NCBI GenBank assembly: GCA_963726195.1
Contig: CAVSBO010000006.1
Location: 1 to 11,562, forward strand
DNA from: Candidatus Thorarchaeota archaeon
GTDB lineage: Archaea; Asgardarchaeota; Thorarchaeia; Thorarchaeales; Thorarchaeaceae
Reading direction: 5' to 3'
DNA length: 11,562 nucleotides
In this document: piece by piece, positions 2,921 to 11,513 of the stretch
Numbering within the stretch: the first letter of the stretch is position 1
Layout: every line of letters begins with the position of its first letter
Notes under the pieces: generated by a model
Databases searched by the model: none
What the model was told of the DNA's origin: nothing
What the model saw: the letters and a program-made list of their open reading frames with translations, nothing else
Translations under genes and position numbers: made by a program

Positions 2921-4106
2921 TCACTCAGGTGCCTTAGCATGCTCTAAGTTCCGAAATAGCGTATAGAATAGCGTGATCGAGGCGACGTAGAGTACAGTGC
3001 AGAGGTAAAATGGGAGACTCAAGTTACCGCCACTCAAGGCCGCGGCTCCCACAACTGTGGTTGCAGCATTTGGTATTCGCCAGACCACAGCGTTGAGCGC
3101 AGACGCAGTGGCTCGTTCGTCCTGAGCGACCAAATTCATCAGCAGTGAATCAGCAAGCGGACTGGACATGTTCATGAGCATCGAGCGGATGACATAGAGC
3201 ACAGCTGCGATCGGCGCTGTTGGGCTGAACGGTGTAGCTAGCAAGAACAATGTTGAGATGAGTTGCGTCGCTGCAATGCCGACGACTAGGCCGGTCTTCT
3301 TTGCTATAGTCGGCGACGCGATCGCCGCGATTCCCATGAGTATGCTTGAGACTGCCACCACGGGACCTGAGAATGCATCGGTCACATTGAATCGAAGATA
3401 AAACCAAGTAGGTATGAGAGGGATTATGAGCCCCGCACCGAGGGCTATCATCAGATTTGCGGTCGAGAACTTCGCCAAGATTCTCAGTGACTTGCGAGGC
3501 AGTATCCCACGACGAGACCGCACAGGTTTGATGTCAACCGCCCAGCGCGATACAGCATAGGGAGTCAACAACCCTAAGAAGCCTAACGCGACAAAAGTGA
3601 TCCGATGAGCTTCCAAGAAACCCAAAGGGCAGTAGTGGAAAAATAGCTGGAAGAAAACTGCCCAAGCCTGCTCCCATCGTGAAGACCACGAATGACAGAC
3701 TGAACGTTGCGGGTCTGGTGGAGACCGACGTAGCGTCCGCAAGGTAAGCATTCCATGTCGAAATATACATGGCCTCCGCTGCGCCGCCTACCAGAGCGGA
3801 CATCTCAAGAATGAAGAAGTCTGATGTCAATCCAGGAATCATCGTTACAGGCATGGAGAGAAGTGCTCCAACGAACATCAGTAACTTGCGTCCGTAACGG
3901 TCCGACAGAATCGAAAACGGAATACTGCAGACCACTGCTGCAAGCCCAAACGTGGTCAGTATGGCTCCGACGTTGGTGATGGAGACTCCTTCCAGAGGAA
4001 GGAATACAGCGATCGCTACCTCGTAGAATCCGAGCCCTGCTGCAAGAGGACCAGCCCCTAACACGACCTTGCTGACCTGGGGGGGAACCTCTCCAAAGGA
4101 TCGCAT
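2921..4106 (-). pseudogene. MFS transporter split by one extra base at about 3618-3629 (real frameshift or sequencing error)
   Basis: ORF 3534..4226 carries the N-half from ATG 4106 (MRSFGEVP..., motif A SILSDRYGRK). ORF 2921..3751 carries the C-half (GFLEAHRITFVAL..., VAQDERATAS). The span is 1186 nt, i.e. 395 codons + 1, a normal 12-TM MFS length. Confidence 0.88.
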
Positions 4107-4189
4107 CGTTGGCTCGCACGGCAGGATGAATGAGGAACGATTAAGTCTGTCGCTGTTTAGCATGAGGGACGATCCGAAAGAGGATTCGC

Positions 4190-4951
4190 ATGACAGGCCA
4201 AAGCGAGAAACTCGCCATTGAAACACTGGATCTCAAGAAGTCCTACAAGATGGGACTCGTGACGGTATATGCGCTGCGTGGAGTGAACCTGAGAATGCGG
4301 CATGGCGAGATTGTTTCTGTGGTTGGCCCGTCTGGCAGCGGGAAGTCAACTCTGCTGAATATGTTGGGTGCTCTCGATACACCGACAAGTGGCAAGATAC
4401 TCATTGATGGCGTTGACATAAGCCGAATGGGAGAGAGAGCACTCGCCAGATTTCGCAACAGAAAGATCGGTTTCATCTTCCAGTCCTACAACCTCATCGA
4501 TAGATCAAAGGTGGCCAAGAACGTAGAGTTGCCCGCTATAGTTGCAGATATGCCGAAGAAGCTGAGGAATCAGCGAGTGCATGAACTCTTAGACCTCGTG
4601 GGTTTGGGTGACAAATCGAATCGTAGACCGAATGCGCTCAGCGGCGGAGAACAACAGCGAGTCGCAATAGCCCGGGCACTCATCAATGATCCCGCATTCA
4701 TTCTCGCAGACGAGCCGACCGGCAATCTCGACTCTAAGACTGGAGAGGAGATACAGAATCTCCTGCTTCGCGTGAACGAAGAGAGAAAAGCAACCATACT
4801 AATCGTTACACACAACTTGGAACTAGCCGAGAAAACGGGAAGGATCCTCCATTTGAGGGACGGCGTCGTGGAGAAAGAGAGAGCAGGACTCATTCCGCAT
4901 AGTAAGCCCAGTGATTCTGACTTGAACGTCGGCGCAAACGGGAGGACGTGA
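4190..4951 (+). CDS. ABC transporter ATP-binding protein, LolD/MacB/FtsE-like
   Basis: Walker A GPSGSGKS, Q-loop GFIFQSYNL, signature LSGGEQQRV, Walker B ILADEPTGNLD and H-loop VTHN. Confidence 0.97.
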   Translation: MTGQSEKLAIETLDLKKSYKMGLVTVYALRGVNLRMRHGEIVSVVGPSGSGKSTLLNMLGALDTPTSGKILIDGVDISRMGERALARFRNRKIGFIFQSYNLIDRSKVAKNVELPAIVADMPKKLRNQRVHELLDLVGLGDKSNRRPNALSGGEQQRVAIARALINDPAFILADEPTGNLDSKTGEEIQNLLLRVNEERKATILIVTHNLELAEKTGRILHLRDGVVEKERAGLIPHSKPSDSDLNVGANGRT

Positions 4952-6195
4952 GGACAGTGGTCGTACTTGATCTGATTGGGCTCTCGTTTGGGGCCTTGAA
5001 AGAGCGAAGACTGAGATCAGGCCTCACAGTATTGATGGTAGTCATAGGTGTGGCACTCATGACCTCGATCAATGGACTGGGCGGAGGCATGAACAACTAC
5101 ATTACTGACGAGCTGAGTACGCTGGCCGCCAACGTCCTAATAATCACGCCTTCTGCGCAGATGTTCGGGCCAGAAGCACAGTCAGGCATGCAGACAAAAC
5201 TGACGGCTCAGACCGTTCACACGATTGAAAGAGTCCCAGGGATGAAGGATGTTGTCCCATTCTTCCAGGGCAGTGCAACCCTGAAGTCTGGCGGCGAGAT
5301 GAAAACTGTCATGATCATAGGAATCGACCACAACAAGGTGCTGTACATTGCTCCCAAAGTCAAACTCGAGTCCGGATCATATGTGTCAATTGGTGACTCC
5401 AGCGGAATGGTATTGGGATACAGCATTGCTCACCCATCAGGCCAAGACCACCCATTCGCGAAGACAGGTCAGACGGTGTTTGTTGAGTTTTCAAAGGTCG
5501 AGACCAAAGGAGGAGTTGAGAAAATCGTGACGAAAACCAAAGCGTTCCAAGTTAGGGGGGTACTCACTGAGCAGGGAACTTCACAGGTCGATAGTGTGGT
5601 CTTCATTACGCTCGCATCGGCGAATAGTCTATTCGAAAAAAGCGGGGCATATGACGGCATCTACGGAGTCACGCACAGTGCAGACGAAAATGACAAGGCT
5701 GAAAATGGCATCAGGAAGATCTACGGGAAGAATATCGGCGTAACATCACCCAAAGCGATCGCAAGCACCGTACAGGAACTGATGGGCACTTTCATCGGAT
5801 TCCTGTCCGCCATTGCCGCGGTCTCTATGTTTGTCGGTGCTGTCGGCATCATCACCACGCTGTACACTTCAGTCATGGAGAGGACCCGCGAGATAGGGCT
5901 ATTGAAGGCGATAGGCTATGCAAGAGAAACAGTCCTCCTCATGTTTCTCACGGAATCCTTCGCAATCGGACTTCTAGGCGGACTGCTGGGATTGGTTTTC
6001 GGCGTTGCCGGAGCATACGTGTTGATCGGGATCTTGCCTTTTGGAGCGGGAACAGTGCGCGTGACTCCCTCGTTTCTGGCGACCGACCTTCTTCAGGTAT
6101 TCCTTCTCGCCTGCGCCCTAAGCGTCGCAGCAGGTATCTATCCTGCCTGGAGAGCATCTACTCTGAGTCCGATAACAGCCCTAAAGAAGGAGTAG
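4948..6195 (+). CDS. ABC transporter permease, MacB/FtsX-like (4 TM with a large extracytoplasmic domain)
   Basis: N-terminal RSGLTVLMVVIGVA, SVMERTREIGLLKAIG and C-terminal GIYPAWRASTLSPITALKKE. GTGA overlap with the ATPase stop. Confidence 0.96.
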   Translation: MRTVVVLDLIGLSFGALKERRLRSGLTVLMVVIGVALMTSINGLGGGMNNYITDELSTLAANVLIITPSAQMFGPEAQSGMQTKLTAQTVHTIERVPGMKDVVPFFQGSATLKSGGEMKTVMIIGIDHNKVLYIAPKVKLESGSYVSIGDSSGMVLGYSIAHPSGQDHPFAKTGQTVFVEFSKVETKGGVEKIVTKTKAFQVRGVLTEQGTSQVDSVVFITLASANSLFEKSGAYDGIYGVTHSADENDKAENGIRKIYGKNIGVTSPKAIASTVQELMGTFIGFLSAIAAVSMFVGAVGIITTLYTSVMERTREIGLLKAIGYARETVLLMFLTESFAIGLLGGLLGLVFGVAGAYVLIGILPFGAGTVRVTPSFLATDLLQVFLLACALSVAAGIYPAWRASTLSPITALKKE

Positions 6196-6303
6196 AGAGC
6201 GGAATCGATTTCGCGATTCAGAGAGCATCACATAGCCCATTGGACACGGGAGGCTCTTCTTCCAATGAACTTCTCAGTCCATCGAGCCTCGCGGCTACTA
6301 CGC

Positions 6304-6396
6304 TCACATGACCGACTCATGCGTTTGAGATCCATTTCTTCTTAGCAGGTCAAGGTATTGGCTAGCTGTAAGTGGTCGTCTCTTTCTCTTTTTCAA
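6304..6396 (-). CDS. Basic microprotein, copy 1 (30 aa, MKKRKRRPLTASQYLDLLRRNGSQTHESVM)
   Basis: TTG start after an AGGAG SD. Paralogous to 11210..11314 with synonymous codon differences. Confidence 0.6.
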   Translation of the reverse strand: MKKRKRRPLTASQYLDLLRRNGSQTHESVM

Positions 6397-6526
6397 ATAC
6401 CTATGCTCCTGAATCTGCCACTATTCTTGTAGCTTGGACCAGATGGTTCCTGTTTCCTTCACGTTGAACTCTCTACAGGCCTTGCGAAAATCCAGGAAGA
6501 AAACCGTGCCTGCATACGATTGTGCT

Positions 6527-6889
6527 TCATTCTACCTTAGGCTTGTCTCTCGTACTCGCATTCTCGCCCTCGTGCGACTCAAGAGGGAGCTTCCTGAGAG
6601 ACCACCCCAGCCACAGGACACCACAAACCGCTATTATGACCGCCAACATTGCGAGGCCGTTTACTAAACCGAGGTGGGGATTCATGTTTCCAAACTGGGC
6701 GGCTCCCGCGAAGTTTCCAAACTGATCAGCCCCGGTGAAGTTACCTGGAGTCATGGGAGGTTGAGACCGAGGCCTTTGCGCGAACAGAAATGAACCAATA
6801 GTTGTGTAAGTGGTCGCGATGGCGGAGAGAACCACGCCCCCCAAAGTTGCCAAGTACGCATATCTTATCTGCTGTTCAATCTTAGTCAA
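6527..6889 (-). CDS. Hypothetical two-TM membrane protein with a GNFxGAxQF tandem repeat in the loop
   Basis: Two hydrophobic segments (YLATLGGVVLSAIATTYTTIGSFLF and LAMLAVIIAVCGVLWLGW). The start is probably TTG 6889 or 6892 after AGGTG; the track's 6955 start lies inside the promoter array. Confidence 0.78.
   Translation of the reverse strand: MTKIEQQIRYAYLATLGGVVLSAIATTYTTIGSFLFAQRPRSQPPMTPGNFTGADQFGNFAGAAQFGNMNPHLGLVNGLAMLAVIIAVCGVLWLGWSLRKLPLESHEGENASTRDKPKVE
6683..6745 (-). repeat. 27-bp in-frame tandem repeat (2.3 copies)
   Basis: GGTAACTTCACCGGGGCTGATCAGTTT / GGAAACTTCGCGGGAGCCGCCCAGTTT / GGAAACATG, encoding GNFTGADQF GNFAGAAQF GNM. Confidence 0.85.
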
Positions 6890-6924
6890 CAATCTGCACC
6901 TTGCAGCCACACTGGTCTTCAAGA

Positions 6925-6979
6925 GATTAAGGCGTGTTTCAAAATTCAACCGCAATTATGTCCAAATCAAATCAAGACT
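6925..6979 (-). promoter_or_regulatory. Phased 11-bp repeat array A plus weak TATA
   Basis: Minus strand reads AGTCTTGATTT GATTTGGACAT AATTGCGGTTG AATTTTGAAAC then ACGCCTTAATC, about 35 nt upstream of start 6889. Confidence 0.75.
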
Positions 6980-7171
6980 TCAAGTGAGAGTGCTCCGGGA
7001 ACAGATGAATACCGACGTTTCGCTGTGCGCTAGTTGCGAAACCTCGCCTTTCAGTGTCACTTGCAGCTCAGTTGTCCGGTAGAACATACTTCGATACGTT
7101 CCATTAAGAGGTAGTCTCTCGCACAAGAAAGGAGGCAATGACATAATTTTCCAGCTATCACTTCTTGTTTG

Positions 7172-7438
7172 TCAGACGAATTTGTCGAATTGGAGTATTC
7201 TCTTTAATGGGTTTCTCTGTCGCAGCATAGAAAGCTCGAATAGTGGTAGCAGCATGGCCGAAACACAGATGACCTGGATCCATTACCCCTGCTGTTGCGC
7301 AAGCTGTGCTGTAAAGTACATTGCCATCCCAAGATAAAGCAAGAGCTCCAATGTGTCCGGAAGCAGATGACTGAACGACCTCGCGTTGGTTGCCAACCAG
7401 TTCATTAATCCGCTAATAATGGATCTCACGCTTGGCAT
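7172..7438 (-). CDS. Small membrane protein: 51 aa to TAA 7283-7285, or an 88-codon gene with an internal stop
   Basis: ATG 7438 follows GAGTGAGG and gives MPSVRSIISGLMNWLATNARSFSHLLPDTLELLLYLGMAMYFTAQLAQQQG*. The same frame continues hydrophobic (WIQVICVSAMLLPLFELSML...) to TGA 7172-7174. Confidence 0.5.
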
Positions 7439-7470
7439 TGATCCTCACTCTCTAGTCTGGAGAAGAATCG

Positions 7471-7617
7471 TCAGCGCCTTTCCTCGTGTGTCCTGCAATA
7501 ATGCCGCTTCAGCCGCGCCTTTGTGCTGTAACTTCGGTCGCATACGATGCATGTGTAGATGCCTATGATGGGTCGTTGATCCTTACTCCATTCATGGTCC
7601 CGAAACACGTGCGTCAT
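7471..7617 (-). CDS. Stand-alone C2H2 zinc-finger microprotein (48 aa)
   Basis: MTHVFRDHEWSKDQRPIIGIYTCIVCDRSYSTKARLKRHYCRTHEERR matches Y-x-C-x2-C-x3-Y-x5-L-x2-H-x4-H exactly. Confidence 0.82.
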   Translation of the reverse strand: MTHVFRDHEWSKDQRPIIGIYTCIVCDRSYSTKARLKRHYCRTHEERR

Positions 7618-7636
7618 CTCATGCACCAGATGTACG

Positions 7637-7804
7637 TCAGTAACGTGATTGCTGCCATCTGAGTCGGCGTCGCTGACTTGCCAAAGTTGCGTATGAAATC
7701 AGGAGCACGAGCCAGGCCGAAATGATCACCATAACGAGGACAAACCATACTCCATCAGACACGAAGCCACCTACGGAACAGCCATTACAGATCCATGTCA
7801 CCAA
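7637..7804 (-). CDS. Single-TM microprotein with an N-terminal CxxC (55 aa)
   Basis: TTG 7804 follows SD GAGGTG and gives MVTWICNGCSVGGFVSDGVWFVLVMVIISAWLVLLISYATLASQRRRLRWQQSRY: one TM followed by a basic cluster. It lies directly downstream of array B. Confidence 0.72.
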   Translation of the reverse strand: MVTWICNGCSVGGFVSDGVWFVLVMVIISAWLVLLISYATLASQRRRLRWQQSRY

Positions 7805-7966
7805 ATTCGACACCTCAGCAACTTGCAGTCAGACCTAGTTCTCAGAAAGATTAAGACGTGTTTCAGAATTTCACCGCAATTGTGCCCGAATCATTTCCAA
7901 GAATGACGGCGCAATTCCAGTCTGCTCGCGAGAGAAGCTGCCTCAAAGCGAGGAAGCTCAATATGG
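7775..7966. repeat. Diverged inverted duplication, partner at about 10889-11078
   Basis: Shares an identical 30-mer (7937-7966 is the reverse complement of 10889-10918), the array, the leader and the first codons (MVTWICNGC vs MVTCSGNGC). Confidence 0.88.
7849..7903 (-). promoter_or_regulatory. Phased 11-bp repeat array B plus weak TATA
   Basis: Minus strand reads TTCTTGGAAAT GATTCGGGCAC AATTGCGGTGA AATTCTGAAAC then ACGTCTTAATC. Confidence 0.78.
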
Positions 7967-8167
7967 CTGGGTCTATGAACGAGAAAATGTTCTGCCTGAC
8001 CAAACTTGAAGGGAGGCTACTCAAGAGAAATTGAATGTCGACCTGTGACCGTGCACTAGCCCTCTGAAGGACATGTCTTCAGCGTCACGTGCGGCTTTAG
8101 GCCACTGAGATTCCTGCTAACTCAAGAACGGAATTCGGTTTCCTGTGTGCATCAACACAAATCTCGT

Positions 8168-8611
8168 CTAGTATCTGAAAGTGAGGTATAGCAGTACGCT
8201 TAGCGCCACGCATGTGAACAAGTCAGGTAGCATGGCAAATGGCCCAAGTCCGAATGCGCGGAAACCGAAGACTCGCTGGAGAAGAGGATTAGAGGACAAC
8301 GCGTAGAAGAGTAAGATGACCGAGAACACCATTAGGCCCAAAGTGAAATCCGATTTCACCTTTCGGTAGATGCCCAGATATGCGGAAAACAGGAAGATGA
8401 GTAGTGCGGCATTGACAGTCGAGAGTACCACAGTGATCCCATAATACAACTGTATATCTCCCGGGGGCGGTGGAAAGGTCGGTCTGGGCTCAAACGCCGG
8501 TCTGAGTGGCTCCAGATAAGTGACACCTAGAAACGCTACAAGCAATGCAACCAAGATGACTGTCGCATAGACAATCCCCGCCTTCTGATTCTTCTTCATG
8601 TTTGACTTCAC
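8168..8611 (-). CDS. Conserved hypothetical membrane protein (4 hydrophobic segments), partner of the winged-helix regulator
   Basis: 147 aa containing YRKVKSDFTLGLMVFSVILLFYALSSNP. Its GTG start overlaps the regulator's TGA (GTGA, 8608-8611). Confidence 0.85.
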   Translation of the reverse strand: MKSNMKKNQKAGIVYATVILVALLVAFLGVTYLEPLRPAFEPRPTFPPPPGDIQLYYGITVVLSTVNAALLIFLFSAYLGIYRKVKSDFTLGLMVFSVILLFYALSSNPLLQRVFGFRAFGLGPFAMLPDLFTCVALSVLLYLTFRY

Positions 8612-8934
8612 TCTCGGTCGTCGTCTTTAGCCTTTTTCCAGATTTTCCCCACAATCTCCTCAAAGAGAGCATAGTTCTCTTCCATCTGTGAGGACAGGAA
8701 ATAGGTGGTCCCATACCTGTCTCCAGCAGTGACGATTATGCCGTGCTTGCCAAGAATCTCAAGATGATGCCTTATGGTTCTGTAGTCCTTCTCGAGTCTG
8801 TTCGCCAGCTGATTCGCGTTCTGAGGAGTCTCCTTCAACACCGCGATCATCTCGGCGCGAGTCGTCCCTCCTTTCGTGCCTGCGATTAGCCAACCCAGCA
8901 GATGCTTCAGCGACGACTCGGTGTGAAAGACCAT
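8608..8934 (-). CDS. Archaeal ArsR-like winged helix-turn-helix transcriptional regulator
   Basis: LLGWLIAGTKGGTTRAEMIAVLKETPQNANQLANRLEKDYRTIRHHLEIL (HTH) and GDRYGTTYFLS (wing). No cysteines. Confidence 0.92.
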   Translation of the reverse strand: MVFHTESSLKHLLGWLIAGTKGGTTRAEMIAVLKETPQNANQLANRLEKDYRTIRHHLEILGKHGIIVTAGDRYGTTYFLSSQMEENYALFEEIVGKIWKKAKDDDRE

Positions 8935-9108
8935 GTCGATTCCAGCCTTCAGGGATCACTCTGGTGCTAGGTTTGAACGAAATGCGAATTTGGCGCATTA
9001 TATGTCTTCCGAGACCATCGCGGTCGATTGGGCAGGCAGCCTAACAGCACTCGCGCTCAGAATGACGAGATTGGGAACAGTCTCGACCTTTCATGGGATG
9101 AGAGGTTA

Positions 9109-9163
9109 CATAAGGGATGAATTAGTCAAAGATTCGGGTCAAATTCTGAAGAACCGCTAATAG
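9109..9163 (+). promoter_or_regulatory. Phased 11-bp repeat array D plus weak TATA, divergent from the regulator gene
   Basis: CATAAGGGATG AATTAGTCAAA GATTCGGGTCA AATTCTGAAGA then ACCGCTAATAG. SD-like GGAGAGG precedes ATG 9213. Confidence 0.72.
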
Positions 9164-9212: not shown

Positions 9213-9428
9213 ATGGTTAGTGAAGCCAAGTGGCGGGAGAGGACTATTTTCCAATGTGAGCTCTGCGGCCACAGCTATGCAGATCTAGAGACAGCCGAAC
9301 GTTGCGAACAATATTGCTACTCGCACGGAAGACCATCGCCCACGCTAATGGAGAAGTACCCTTTGAAGCTTCAGCGAAATGACATTGGGACACCTAACAG
9401 AAAGAATCCCAGATACAAAATGAACTGA
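9213..9428 (+). CDS. Small putative zinc-binding protein (CxxC...CxxxCxxH)
   Basis: 71 aa containing FQCELCGHSYADLETAERCEQYCYSH; SD present. Confidence 0.8.
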   Translation: MVSEAKWRERTIFQCELCGHSYADLETAERCEQYCYSHGRPSPTLMEKYPLKLQRNDIGTPNRKNPRYKMN

Positions 9429-9475: not shown

Positions 9476-10432
9476 ATGATCTTCCCGGACGCTCAATTCC
9501 TCGTGGTGTTGATCTGGGGTTTGATAACTCCGTCGACGCCCTTCCTGCCTACAGTAGAATTCATGGTGGCTAGCATCATAGTCGCGATGTTGTCTCGACG
9601 TTCCTTTCACCGGCAGACTATTGCTTTGCTCTGTGTCTTGGGCATAATGTCCATCCAGAGCCTCGAGCTTGTTATGTTGGCATTGCATGTCCAGGTTTTC
9701 ATGACGCCATCCGGTGCGTTCTTGCCAACCCCCGATAATATGTCGAATTATCTTTCGATCTTGTTTGAGGCAAATCTCTGGTTTGCTGGATTCGGTGCTG
9801 CCGCTGCGGCATTTGTGGCGGTTTATGTTTGTTTTGGGAAATCTCGGTTGGAAATGTTACGCGCTTCTCCTGGTGCTATCCTGATTGAAAACCCGATGTG
9901 GCTCAGAAAGATCGCATTAGGCTTGGCAAATCGGGCGAACGTGAGCTGTCCGGAGGTTTGTCTGGTCGATTCTGGAACTCCGCAAGCCTTCACGGTGAGA
10001 GAGAAGAGCAAGTATGTCATCGCACTGTCTGTCGGGATATTGGAGTGTTTCGACACCAAGGAGGTTGAGGCTTGCATTGCTCACGAGATAGCTCATATCA
10101 AGAACAATGACTTCATGATCAGGTTTCTTGCCACATTGGGTAAGGTTGCTGTCTTTTCCAAACCGGTGAGTTATCTCATTGAAGCAGCAATTTACCGTGC
10201 ACGCGAGTTTCACGCGGACAAAACAGCGGCGTCATTGATTGGAGGACCCGATGCACTCATATCAGTGCTCACAAAGCTCGGTGAACTTAACTCATATTCC
10301 TCAATCCCGACTACTCCGGGCCCTGCTTGTGCGTGTTTATTGGATCGAAGCGAAGGCATGCGCAGGATCTTGGACAAACATCCGGCTCTTGAGTCTAGGA
10401 TTAGGTTGTTGAACGAATTGAAATCTCCCTGA
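9476..10432 (+). CDS. M48 family (HtpX-like) membrane zinc metalloprotease
   Basis: N-terminal TM segments, PQAF, HEIAH zinc motif, third ligand in AREFHAD, and C-terminal HPALESRI. Confidence 0.9.
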   Translation: MIFPDAQFLVVLIWGLITPSTPFLPTVEFMVASIIVAMLSRRSFHRQTIALLCVLGIMSIQSLELVMLALHVQVFMTPSGAFLPTPDNMSNYLSILFEANLWFAGFGAAAAAFVAVYVCFGKSRLEMLRASPGAILIENPMWLRKIALGLANRANVSCPEVCLVDSGTPQAFTVREKSKYVIALSVGILECFDTKEVEACIAHEIAHIKNNDFMIRFLATLGKVAVFSKPVSYLIEAAIYRAREFHADKTAASLIGGPDALISVLTKLGELNSYSSIPTTPGPACACLLDRSEGMRRILDKHPALESRIRLLNELKSP

Positions 10433-10604: not shown

Positions 10605-10702
10605 CAGTGCCGGTGACATTAGGATTGGAGGTGAATTAGGAGAGAAGTTGGGAGCAATTCTGAAAACCCCTCTTATGGTGCGAGGTCATTTCGGTGATGC
10701 GA
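10605..10702 (+). repeat. About 98-bp direct repeat, copy 1 (partner 11417-11513)
   Basis: 10645-10702 and 11456-11513 match at 55 of 58 positions, with weaker similarity upstream. Confidence 0.92.
10623..10678 (+). promoter_or_regulatory. Phased 11-bp repeat array E plus weak TATA
   Basis: GATTGGAGGTG AATTAGGAGAG AAGTTGGGAGC AATTCTGAAAA then CCCCTCTTATGG. Confidence 0.72.
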
Positions 10703-10709
10703 ACGCAAA

Positions 10710-10883
10710 ATGAAACCAACTACCCCATCGAACCCTCGTTCTGATCCTGCTCCTTCAGTTGAAACCTTAGGGGTGACCAAAGTCTACAGAGTCGGTTCTT
10801 GCCAGACCGTGCGTTTGGCTTCAGATTTCTTCCTGAGCTGCCTCAGTTCGAGTCCGGTTGTATGGAGTGTCTTGGATTCGTAG
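10710..10883 (+). pseudogene. Probable 5' remnant of an ABC ATP-binding gene
   Basis: The 57-aa ORF MKPTTPSNPRSDPAPSVETLGVTKVYRVGS... resembles AIETLDLKKSYKMG of the 4190 ATPase, then loses similarity before Walker A. Confidence 0.5.
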
Positions 10884-10948
10884 CATTACCATATTGAGCT
10901 TCCTCGCTTTGAGGCAGCCTCTCTTGGAGCAGGCTGGAATCACACAGC

Positions 10949-11002
10949 CGCTTTGACGTGATTTGGGCATAATTAAGGTGAAATCCTGAAATAGCCTTAA
11001 TC
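10949..11002 (+). promoter_or_regulatory. Phased 11-bp repeat array C plus weak TATA
   Basis: (CGCTTTGACGT) GATTTGGGCAT AATTAAGGTGA AATCCTGAAAT then AGCCTTAATC. Confidence 0.75.
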
Positions 11003-11416: not shown

Positions 11417-11513
11417 CAGCGCCGGCACACTCAGATTGGGGAAGAATTAGGACACAAGTTGGGAGTAATTCTGAAAACCCCTCTTATGTTGCGAAGTCAT
11501 TTCGGTGATGCGA
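11417..11513 (+). repeat. About 97-bp direct repeat, copy 2
   Basis: Matches 10605-10702. Confidence 0.92.
11434..11488 (+). promoter_or_regulatory. Phased 11-bp repeat array F plus weak TATA
   Basis: GATTGGGGAAG AATTAGGACAC AAGTTGGGAGT AATTCTGAAAA then CCCCTCTTATG. Confidence 0.72.

Follow-up and report, generated by a model that had tools for sequence, protein, structure and literature searches.

Organization of the REG–MEM locus

Here we describe a candidate regulatory module, together with the promoter arrays that accompany it, in DNA from a Candidatus Thorarchaeota archaeon (contig CAVSBO010000006.1). The stretch analysed (hereafter referred to as the window) is the entire 11,562-bp contig (C6) of a 2.9-Mb metagenome-assembled genome (MAG) with a completeness of 88.9%. 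The module comprises two genes on the minus strand: REG (8608–8934), which encodes a small DNA-binding protein of 108 residues without cysteine, a winged-helix regulator of the ArsR/SmtB fold, and MEM (8168–8599), which encodes its putative partner, a 143-residue membrane protein with four transmembrane (TM) helices that belongs to Pfam family PF26119 (DUF8036). Six promoter regions of the window carry arrays of 2–4 direct repeats GATTnGG at 11-bp spacing, followed by a near-invariant AATTCTGAAAA and then a TATA box. An initial annotation of the sequence had placed the pair amid these six arrays and divergent from one of them, array D, and this holds: the array coordinates flank the pair, and array D lies opposite REG.

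The same annotation had described a 108-residue cysteine-free regulator overlapping, as GTGA, a membrane protein of 147 residues. These frames exist, the longer MEM frame running from a GTG at 8168–8611 (minus strand) that overlaps the REG stop codon, but the ATG at 8599 is the likelier start, because MEM homologs in more than 30 clusters are 143 residues long and begin with MKKNQK or MNKN, the equivalent of that ATG. It lies 8 nt past the REG stop codon and is preceded by a Shine–Dalgarno-like GAGAGTGA. Whichever MEM start holds, REG and MEM form one tight operon. A putative TATA box of this operon, ACATATAATG, can be read from the sequence at 8996–9005 (minus strand), 62 nt upstream of the REG ATG, and its position is kept in the close relatives L007–L012.

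REG and MEM occur as a pair

We retrieved 80 loci via MEM from contigs representing one genome per species. In 76 of them MEM is directly preceded by a co-oriented REG, and the remaining four are cut by contig ends. A held-out set from the GTDB class of the window gave the same order in all 20 loci, that is, 96 of 100 when the two sets are combined, with the other four at contig ends. Across 87 genomes of the class, MEM was found in 26 and REG in 28; both are present and adjacent in 25, and the four discordant cases are fragments or lie at contig ends. REG and MEM are an obligate, widely conserved two-gene module, in agreement with the initial proposal, the gene-neighbourhood survey having found them together in all intact loci.

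The genome that contains the window holds three paralogous pairs, the two further ones being located on contigs C4 (G000:C4:113914-114660) and C13 (G000:C13:67559-68309) in the same gene order and at 38–49% identity. The module is nevertheless accessory, because the window's three congeners hold no intact pair: MEM is absent from all three, and one of them (G023) has a partial REG-like match of 46 bits. The 80 loci come mostly from Bathyarchaeia, some from Methanocellaceae, and a few from hosts that are labelled otherwise. Two loci (L061 and L082) carry Bathyarchaeia-like pairs and arrays in MAGs labelled Acidobacteriota (Acidoferrum, Acidiferrales), and are probably mis-binned archaeal DNA. 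In a further genome, a REG homolog (G013:C96:4491-4793) is part of a 278-residue frame on a contig other than that of the partial MEM, and may be an extended or fused form.

Molecular features of REG and MEM

REG matches the Pfam ArsR-family domain HTH_5 at 27.5 bits (cut-off 22), and its homologs carry precomputed PF01022 assignments. A model computed from a 62-sequence alignment (pLDDT 89) displays the ArsR/SmtB fold, α1-α2-α3-αR-β1-β2-α5, with helices at residues 6–19, 23–35, 40–47 and 51–63, a wing at 67–80 and a C-terminal helix at 88–107. The closest folds in the PDB are those of HlyU, CzrA and SmtB (TM 0.6–0.7); HlyU (4k2e) is the top structural match, with a TM of 0.60–0.68 and a sequence identity of 19–20%. 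A search of PDB sequences with the REG profile returned weak matches only (5duk, PH1932 and Phr; E 0.002–0.007). In the alignment, the family is marked by the signature LLGWLIAGT(K/R)GG and by an invariant recognition helix, DY(R/K)T(I/V)RHH. This helix is invariant in both subfamilies, as is the GATTnGG core of the arrays. The C-terminus is an amphipathic basic helix (KIWKKxKRE).

Neither of the metal-binding sites looked for, the α3N cysteine pair and the α5 His/Asp/Glu cluster, is present in the sequence or alignment of REG, which contains no cysteine at all and has histidines only at positions 5, 11, 56, 57 and 65, none of them within the C-terminal helix. REG was accordingly rejected as a metal sensor, and the part of the initial annotation that invoked metal stress is not supported. 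Pfam searches gave no BlaI/MecI (Penicillinase_R) match for REG and no receiver or Trans_reg_C domain; the histidine kinase and response regulator domains of two-component envelope-stress systems (Cpx, Bae, Zra, Bce and Lia) are absent from REG and MEM, and none recurs in the loci when the window proteins are used as queries. The best NCBIfam match of REG is the SdpR family (NF033789), at 27.3 bits against a cut-off of 100.

The assignment of MEM to PF26119 is precomputed for all 120 homologs among the matches listed, and the nearest Atlas clusters are 98–100% DUF8036, a Pfam family of unknown function. The MEM model consists of four TM helices. The loop between TM1 and TM2 is proline-rich and poorly conserved, the inner loop between TM2 and TM3 is conserved and basic (YRKxKSxFT), and the outer side bears three conserved motifs, in the order SNP, GLGPF and PDLF. 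No structure resembling the model was found below E = 0.5 in a PDB fold search, and no SdpI (PF13630) match at E up to 0.1 in Pfam. Prediction of a MEM–REG complex, using 62-row alignments for each protein, yielded a score of 0.00, which argues neither for nor against a contact; the sequestration of REG by MEM suggested in the initial annotation draws no support from it.

Phased arrays adjoin the core promoters

Oriented by transcription, all six promoters of the window can be aligned with no gap: units of GATTnGGnnnn are followed by a last unit, AATTCTGAA(A/G)(A/C), then by 4–5 nt and a TATA-like box. Two arrays are on the minus strand. Array A (6920–6977) precedes a putative target gene for a membrane protein of about 127 residues (6527–6910), and array B (7845–7901; 36.9 bits) precedes two putative target genes for microproteins (7637–7813 and 7471–7626). 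The other four are on the plus strand. Array D (9111–9162; 33.3 bits), which is divergent from REG and has zinc-ribbon and M48 genes as its putative targets, consists of three 11-bp units, AATTCTGAAGA and the TATA-like GCTAATAG. Array E (10624–10682) precedes a 57-codon remnant of an ABC ATPase gene (10710–10883), its putative target. Array C (10952–11001) is located within an inverted, internally deleted copy of the A/B cassette, and array F (11435–11493) is a duplicate of array E (87% over 90 nt) whose target is cut by the contig end. With the array model described below, these six arrays have E values of 9e-10 to 7e-7 and are the sole significant matches in the 2.9-Mb genome, all within 2.6 kb of the pair. 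The six copies do not represent as many independent events: A, B and C derive from one another by recent duplication in the window, as do E and F. Weaker arrays with diverged units were found with a first position weight matrix (PWM) directly beside both paralogous pairs of the genome: on C4 the array follows MEM and leads into a gene for a polytopic membrane protein; that on C13 is divergent and leads into a MacB-type ABC operon.

For the wider comparison, 66 array sequences were aligned without gaps (alignment A3), and this alignment is the basis of both a sequence-only covariance model (R1) and a PWM. Information is concentrated on G-A-T-T and G-G (columns 12–15/17–18, 23–26/29–30 and 34–40), with autocorrelation at a lag of 11; conservation thus falls on specific bases, GATT and GG, and not on A-tracts. 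The AATT cores of the arrays are self-complementary, and the conserved element is the direct repeat GATTnGG at columns 12, 23 and 34. A purely palindromic reading of the arrays was rejected, the conserved GG being asymmetric and repeating in one direction. Arrays of relatives have a better TATA box (TTTAATAA) and are usually on the strand opposite to REG, 90–200 bp upstream of it, or just downstream of MEM.

The PWM gave 93 matches in 66 loci (695 kb), as against none in reversed sequence. An array is present within 450 bp of the pair in 50 of the 66 loci; 44 arrays are divergent and upstream of REG (median distance 158 bp), and 12 are just downstream of MEM. Of five complete genomes that each have one pair, four have their best array right beside it, and 9 of 26 array matches are within 3 kb of the pair, where about 0.1 would be expected; the other strong matches are distal and would make up a regulon. 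About 12 of the 20 held-out loci, which are of paralog type, have a variant array immediately after MEM; it reads GATTTGGGTAT AATCAGGAAA GATTTCGGTAA followed by TATATAC and stands before a gene for a polytopic membrane protein of about 500 residues with a weak PMT_2 match. Searches of 87 and of 151 genomes with the array model scored 35–61 of up to several thousand candidates per genome, and their negatives are unreliable; our conclusions are based on the targeted loci and the five complete genomes. The association of the module with 11-bp-phased arrays persists across phyla and paralogous subfamilies. REG is likely to be the factor that binds them, because it is the product of the sole DNA-binding protein gene common to all loci.

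The 3' end of REG (the EEI..KI(W/G)KK codons) itself reads as two array-like units, GATTGTGGGGA and AAATCTGGAAA (8615–8655, minus strand), about 40 nt ahead of the MEM start. Similar units are seen in most loci (for example L099 2480-2511, L102 2996-3027 and G000:C13:67815-67845), and the array model matches the REG 3' end in 18 of 20 held-out loci. They may act on MEM as an internal promoter or roadblock that depends on REG, or may simply reflect conservation of the encoded peptide. Separately, a convincing array (L133, G026:C7:5335-5388; GATTTGGGTAT GATTTGGGTGA GATTTTGGAAT and a TATA box) occurs in a 97%-complete genome, G026, in which only a 46-residue REG fragment and no MEM were found; it is possibly a remnant of a lost module.

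Envelope genes lie behind the arrays

To define targets, we took the first long gene behind each of 109 arrays. These targets include 23 signal-anchored proteins of 140–220 residues, 21 MacB-type FtsX permeases, each followed by its ATPase, and six HtrA proteins with Trypsin_2 and PDZ domains. Other targets are ABC ATPases, zinc-ribbon proteins, large surface proteins, a PAP2 phosphatase, a UbiA prenyltransferase and a Cthe_2159 protein. In the window, the corresponding genes encode the membrane protein of about 127 residues (array A), membrane and C2H2 microproteins (array B), the zinc-ribbon and M48 proteins (array D) and the truncated ABC ATPase (array E). The array-driven genes are envelope genes, which bears out the envelope function originally suggested for the genes around the pair.

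A subgroup of the anchored proteins consists of 2–3 repeats of about 45 residues, each starting with LTxxQ. Metal_resist (PF13801) is their best or near-best Pfam match, at 31.5 bits in L075 (cut-off 29.2) and at 25.5 and 22.7 bits in two others, whereas the matches to LTXXQ (PF07813) stay under its cut-off of 24.3, at 12–21 bits; an LTxxQ motif can be seen in all repeats. Because of the Metal_resist matches and the weak LTXXQ matches, we regard these as candidate CpxP/Spy/ZraP-like proteins.

The same repeat appears in MEM. A long form of MEM (186–202 residues), in which one LTxxQ repeat is inserted between TM1 and TM2, was found in 13 of 96 MEM genes (L024, L025, L028, L033, L035 (5734–6300), L036, L041, L065, L067, L072, L078, L081 and L086). 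Compared with the individual repeats of one array-driven protein, the insert shows 51–54% identity (E = 4e-11). Given that MEM has a basic N-terminus and that most of each anchored LTXXQ protein is outside, the TM1–TM2 loop should face outward. An outer-loop LTXXQ module common to MEM and to secreted regulon proteins would fit a sensor that is contacted by these proteins or competes with them.

Proposed mechanism and alternatives

Taken together, we consider it somewhat more probable than the sum of its alternatives that MEM senses the envelope and controls REG, and that REG, positioned on the phased units, activates envelope-maintenance genes. The two genes would form a kinase-free module of Bathyarchaeia, also present in Methanocellaceae. 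MEM would sense the state of the envelope by its outer face, through the TM1–TM2 loop and the SNP, GLGPF and PDLF motifs, and would set, in either direction, the amount of free REG that reaches DNA. REG, devoid of metal ligands, would recognize head-to-tail GATTnGG units every 11 bp on one helix face, the last unit, AATTCTG, abutting the TFB-recognition element (BRE) and TATA box of the target promoters. It would most likely activate by recruiting TFB/TBP. The output would be an envelope-maintenance regulon comprising one or more MacB-type ABC exporters, HtrA, an HtpX-like M48 protease, PAP2, surface proteins and LTXXQ-repeat proteins. That REG acts as an activator is probable because the operator is always upstream of BRE/TATA. 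In archaea, an operator in this position favours activation, as with TrmBL1, SurR, Tgr and Ptr2.

Several points weigh against this mechanism. ArsR/SmtB proteins are symmetric dimers that normally occupy inverted repeats (12-2-12 type), and a head-to-tail array is atypical for the fold. The BRE/TATA is near consensus in many clades (GAAAAA...TTTAATAA), which fits a repressed strong promoter equally well. The cytoplasmic surface of MEM is very small, consisting of an N-terminus of about 8 residues, one loop of about 8 residues and 3 C-terminal residues, and no fused REG–MEM protein was found among longer proteins, although the latter is weak evidence. In G089, one of the complete genomes, 3.6 kb separate the pair from the closest array, and two weak array-like matches (24–26 bits) come from genomes that lack both REG and MEM. 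Training of the array model and PWM used pattern-picked arrays of the same loci, so that detection there is partly circular; the positions, the controls and the whole-genome searches are independent of this training. The window regulon itself is rearranged and partly degenerate, with a truncated ABC gene and duplicated cassettes. Finally, the obligate pairing, the association of the arrays with the pair, their geometry, the kinds of genes behind them and the LTXXQ repeat common to MEM loops and targets are observed, whereas the binding of REG to DNA, activation, its contact with MEM and the stimulus are inferred.

The best-surviving alternative, which we nonetheless regard as unlikely, is an arrangement of the SdpR/SdpI type: REG would be a repressor that coats the arrays and blocks TFB/TBP, and MEM an immunity or protection effector that also captures REG at the membrane upon binding of an external toxin or ligand, causing derepression. 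The order of the genes, regulator and then membrane protein, is that of sdpRI, and SdpI homologs are often found downstream of ArsR, PadR or GntR regulators, archaea included (PMC2910880). SdpR is also the best NCBIfam match of REG, but a weak one that stays far below the cut-off, and MEM has neither an SdpI match nor a structural one. Near-consensus BRE/TATA elements behind many arrays suggest promoters that require repression; against this, the operator is entirely upstream of BRE/TATA and not over the TATA box or start site. MacB-type exporters and PAP2 are typical antimicrobial-resistance outputs, yet the regulon is much wider than the regulator's own operon.

Still less probable is that MEM has no signalling role and is simply the first co-transcribed effector, REG sensing alone via a ligand, redox state or contact of its basic tail with the membrane. 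The amphipathic basic helix of REG could touch lipid, but REG lacks cysteine and has no obvious ligand pocket outside its 108-residue DNA-binding fold. The small cytoplasmic exposure of MEM and the uninformative complex prediction are compatible with such an effector, and REG-like proteins outnumber MEM-like ones about 2.6-fold in protein searches; an ordinary target would, however, be expected to vary, and REG and MEM are adjacent in every intact case despite differing targets. The gain of the regulon's LTXXQ repeat in the outer loop of MEM variants also points to the sensing of a ligand or partner.

We deem it very improbable that the arrays are bound by another factor, or are a curved-DNA promoter element, in a cassette inherited or transferred as a block with REG–MEM: although A/B/C and E/F are recent duplicates and two weak array-like matches are in REG-less genomes, no other DNA-binding protein gene is common to all loci, the link survives changes of target, of array position (divergent or downstream of MEM) and of phylum (Bathyarchaeia to Methanocellaceae), distal arrays are present in pair-bearing genomes (G020 and G088), and conservation is on GATT and GG rather than on A-tracts.

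Comparison with known systems

In architecture, the closest system is SdpR–SdpI of Bacillus subtilis, an ArsR-family autorepressor and a polytopic immunity and signal protein. In both cases the gene for an ArsR-type regulator is directly upstream of that for a small polytopic membrane protein, in one operon and with no kinase. SdpI has been proposed to control the access of SdpR to DNA (PMC2910880). The two systems differ in that REG scores far below the SdpR cut-off and MEM is a four-TM DUF8036 protein without an SdpI signal; the operator is a phased direct repeat upstream of BRE/TATA, the envelope regulon comprises many genes, and the host is archaeal.

In output, the closest systems are Cpx (CpxA–CpxR–CpxP), Bae and Zra of Gram-negative bacteria, whose products likewise include the DegP/HtrA protease, an HtpX-type M48 protease and LTXXQ proteins of the CpxP/Spy/ZraP kind. 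CpxP and ZraP act on their sensor kinases. As in Cpx and Zra, an LTXXQ module is associated with the sensor, here as an insertion in the outer loop of some MEM variants. Unlike these systems, the module has no histidine kinase or response regulator, its regulator has the ArsR fold and its candidate sensor is a 143-residue four-TM protein. The likeness is functional and not one of descent. We tentatively raise, as a proposition that is rather more likely to fail than to stand, that the module is a Cpx analogue without a kinase and the first envelope-stress response to be defined in archaea. In this view a DUF8036 sensor, whose outer loop would either carry a chaperone-like LTXXQ repeat or be contacted by those that the regulon encodes, would hold back or license an ArsR-fold activator. 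The activator would assemble head-to-tail on the 11-bp-phased repeats beside BRE/TATA and would switch on HtrA, an HtpX-like protease, MacB, a lipid-carrier phosphatase and LTXXQ proteins that feed back on the sensor.

The arrays themselves recall pho boxes, which are 11-bp-spaced direct repeats next to the core promoter that are recognized by winged-helix proteins. The parallel with PhoB/OmpR holds for a winged-helix protein, for 11-bp-spaced direct repeats and for their position adjoining the core promoter, if REG binds them as supposed. REG differs in lacking the receiver and Trans_reg_C domains and in having the ArsR/SmtB dimer fold, and its promoters are archaeal, with BRE/TATA. HlyU of Vibrio, the best structural match of REG, is a positively acting ArsR/SmtB regulator that is likewise free of a metal site. 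It acts by displacing H-NS. The resemblance is limited by the low identity, and HlyU has neither a membrane partner nor a repeat-array operator.

BlaI/BlaR1 and MecI/MecR1 also combine a winged-helix regulator with a membrane protein, and the window's M48 protease only just reaches the Pfam family Peptidase_M56. REG has no BlaI/MecI match, however, and the protease, which lacks a sensor domain, is a target rather than a sensor. Its association with the pair is confined to the window's clade (L007 and L008); the matches in L042 and L077 are weak. The M48 protein was therefore rejected as a BlaR-like sensor, being a clade-specific target gene behind array D, and the BlaR/BlaI logic proposed in the initial annotation is not upheld.

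Literature searches on DUF8036, on archaeal envelope stress regulators and on Bathyarchaeota ArsR proteins with a membrane protein returned nothing relevant, and little is understood of the ways in which archaea detect and mend envelope damage. The module provides a regulator, its likely operator resolved to single bases, a candidate sensor and targets that make a coherent set. Hundreds of uncultured Bathyarchaeia share it, and its range extends to Methanocellaceae. If the proposed mechanism is true, an ArsR-fold protein would read head-to-tail repeats, and bacteria and archaea would have converged on HtrA, HtpX and LTXXQ proteins for the quality control of their envelopes. Regulons in MAGs can be predicted with the operator model.

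Neighbouring genes and rearrangements of the window

The first gene behind array D (9213–9428, plus strand) encodes a 71-residue zinc-ribbon-like protein (CxxC...CxxxC) with a weak DUF7128 match, and the second (9476–10432, plus strand) encodes the membrane M48 (HtpX-like) metalloprotease, of 318 residues. An intact MacB-type ABC system occupies 4190–6195. The M48 protease, this ABC system and the truncated ABC gene are as first annotated, whereas the calls of zinc-binding microproteins in the window are based on weak Pfam matches only.

Colinearity with the relative L007 (91.5% identity) stops at 10796, after the first 87 nt of the ABC ATPase gene that follows array E; this gene is truncated in the window and intact in L007. 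The segment 10796–11562 is an inverted, partly deleted copy of the 6300–8030 cassette, together with the second copy of array E. Upstream of arrays B and C lies a 36-nt inverted pair (7931–7966 and 10889–10924; 97% complementary) that is better conserved than the surrounding duplicated DNA. Just upstream of the intact MacB-type ABC operon, two overlapping frames on the minus strand (2921–3751 and 3534–4226) each match Pfam MFS_1 (profile positions 3–179 and 16–144, respectively) and resemble a frameshifted or duplicated MFS transporter gene.

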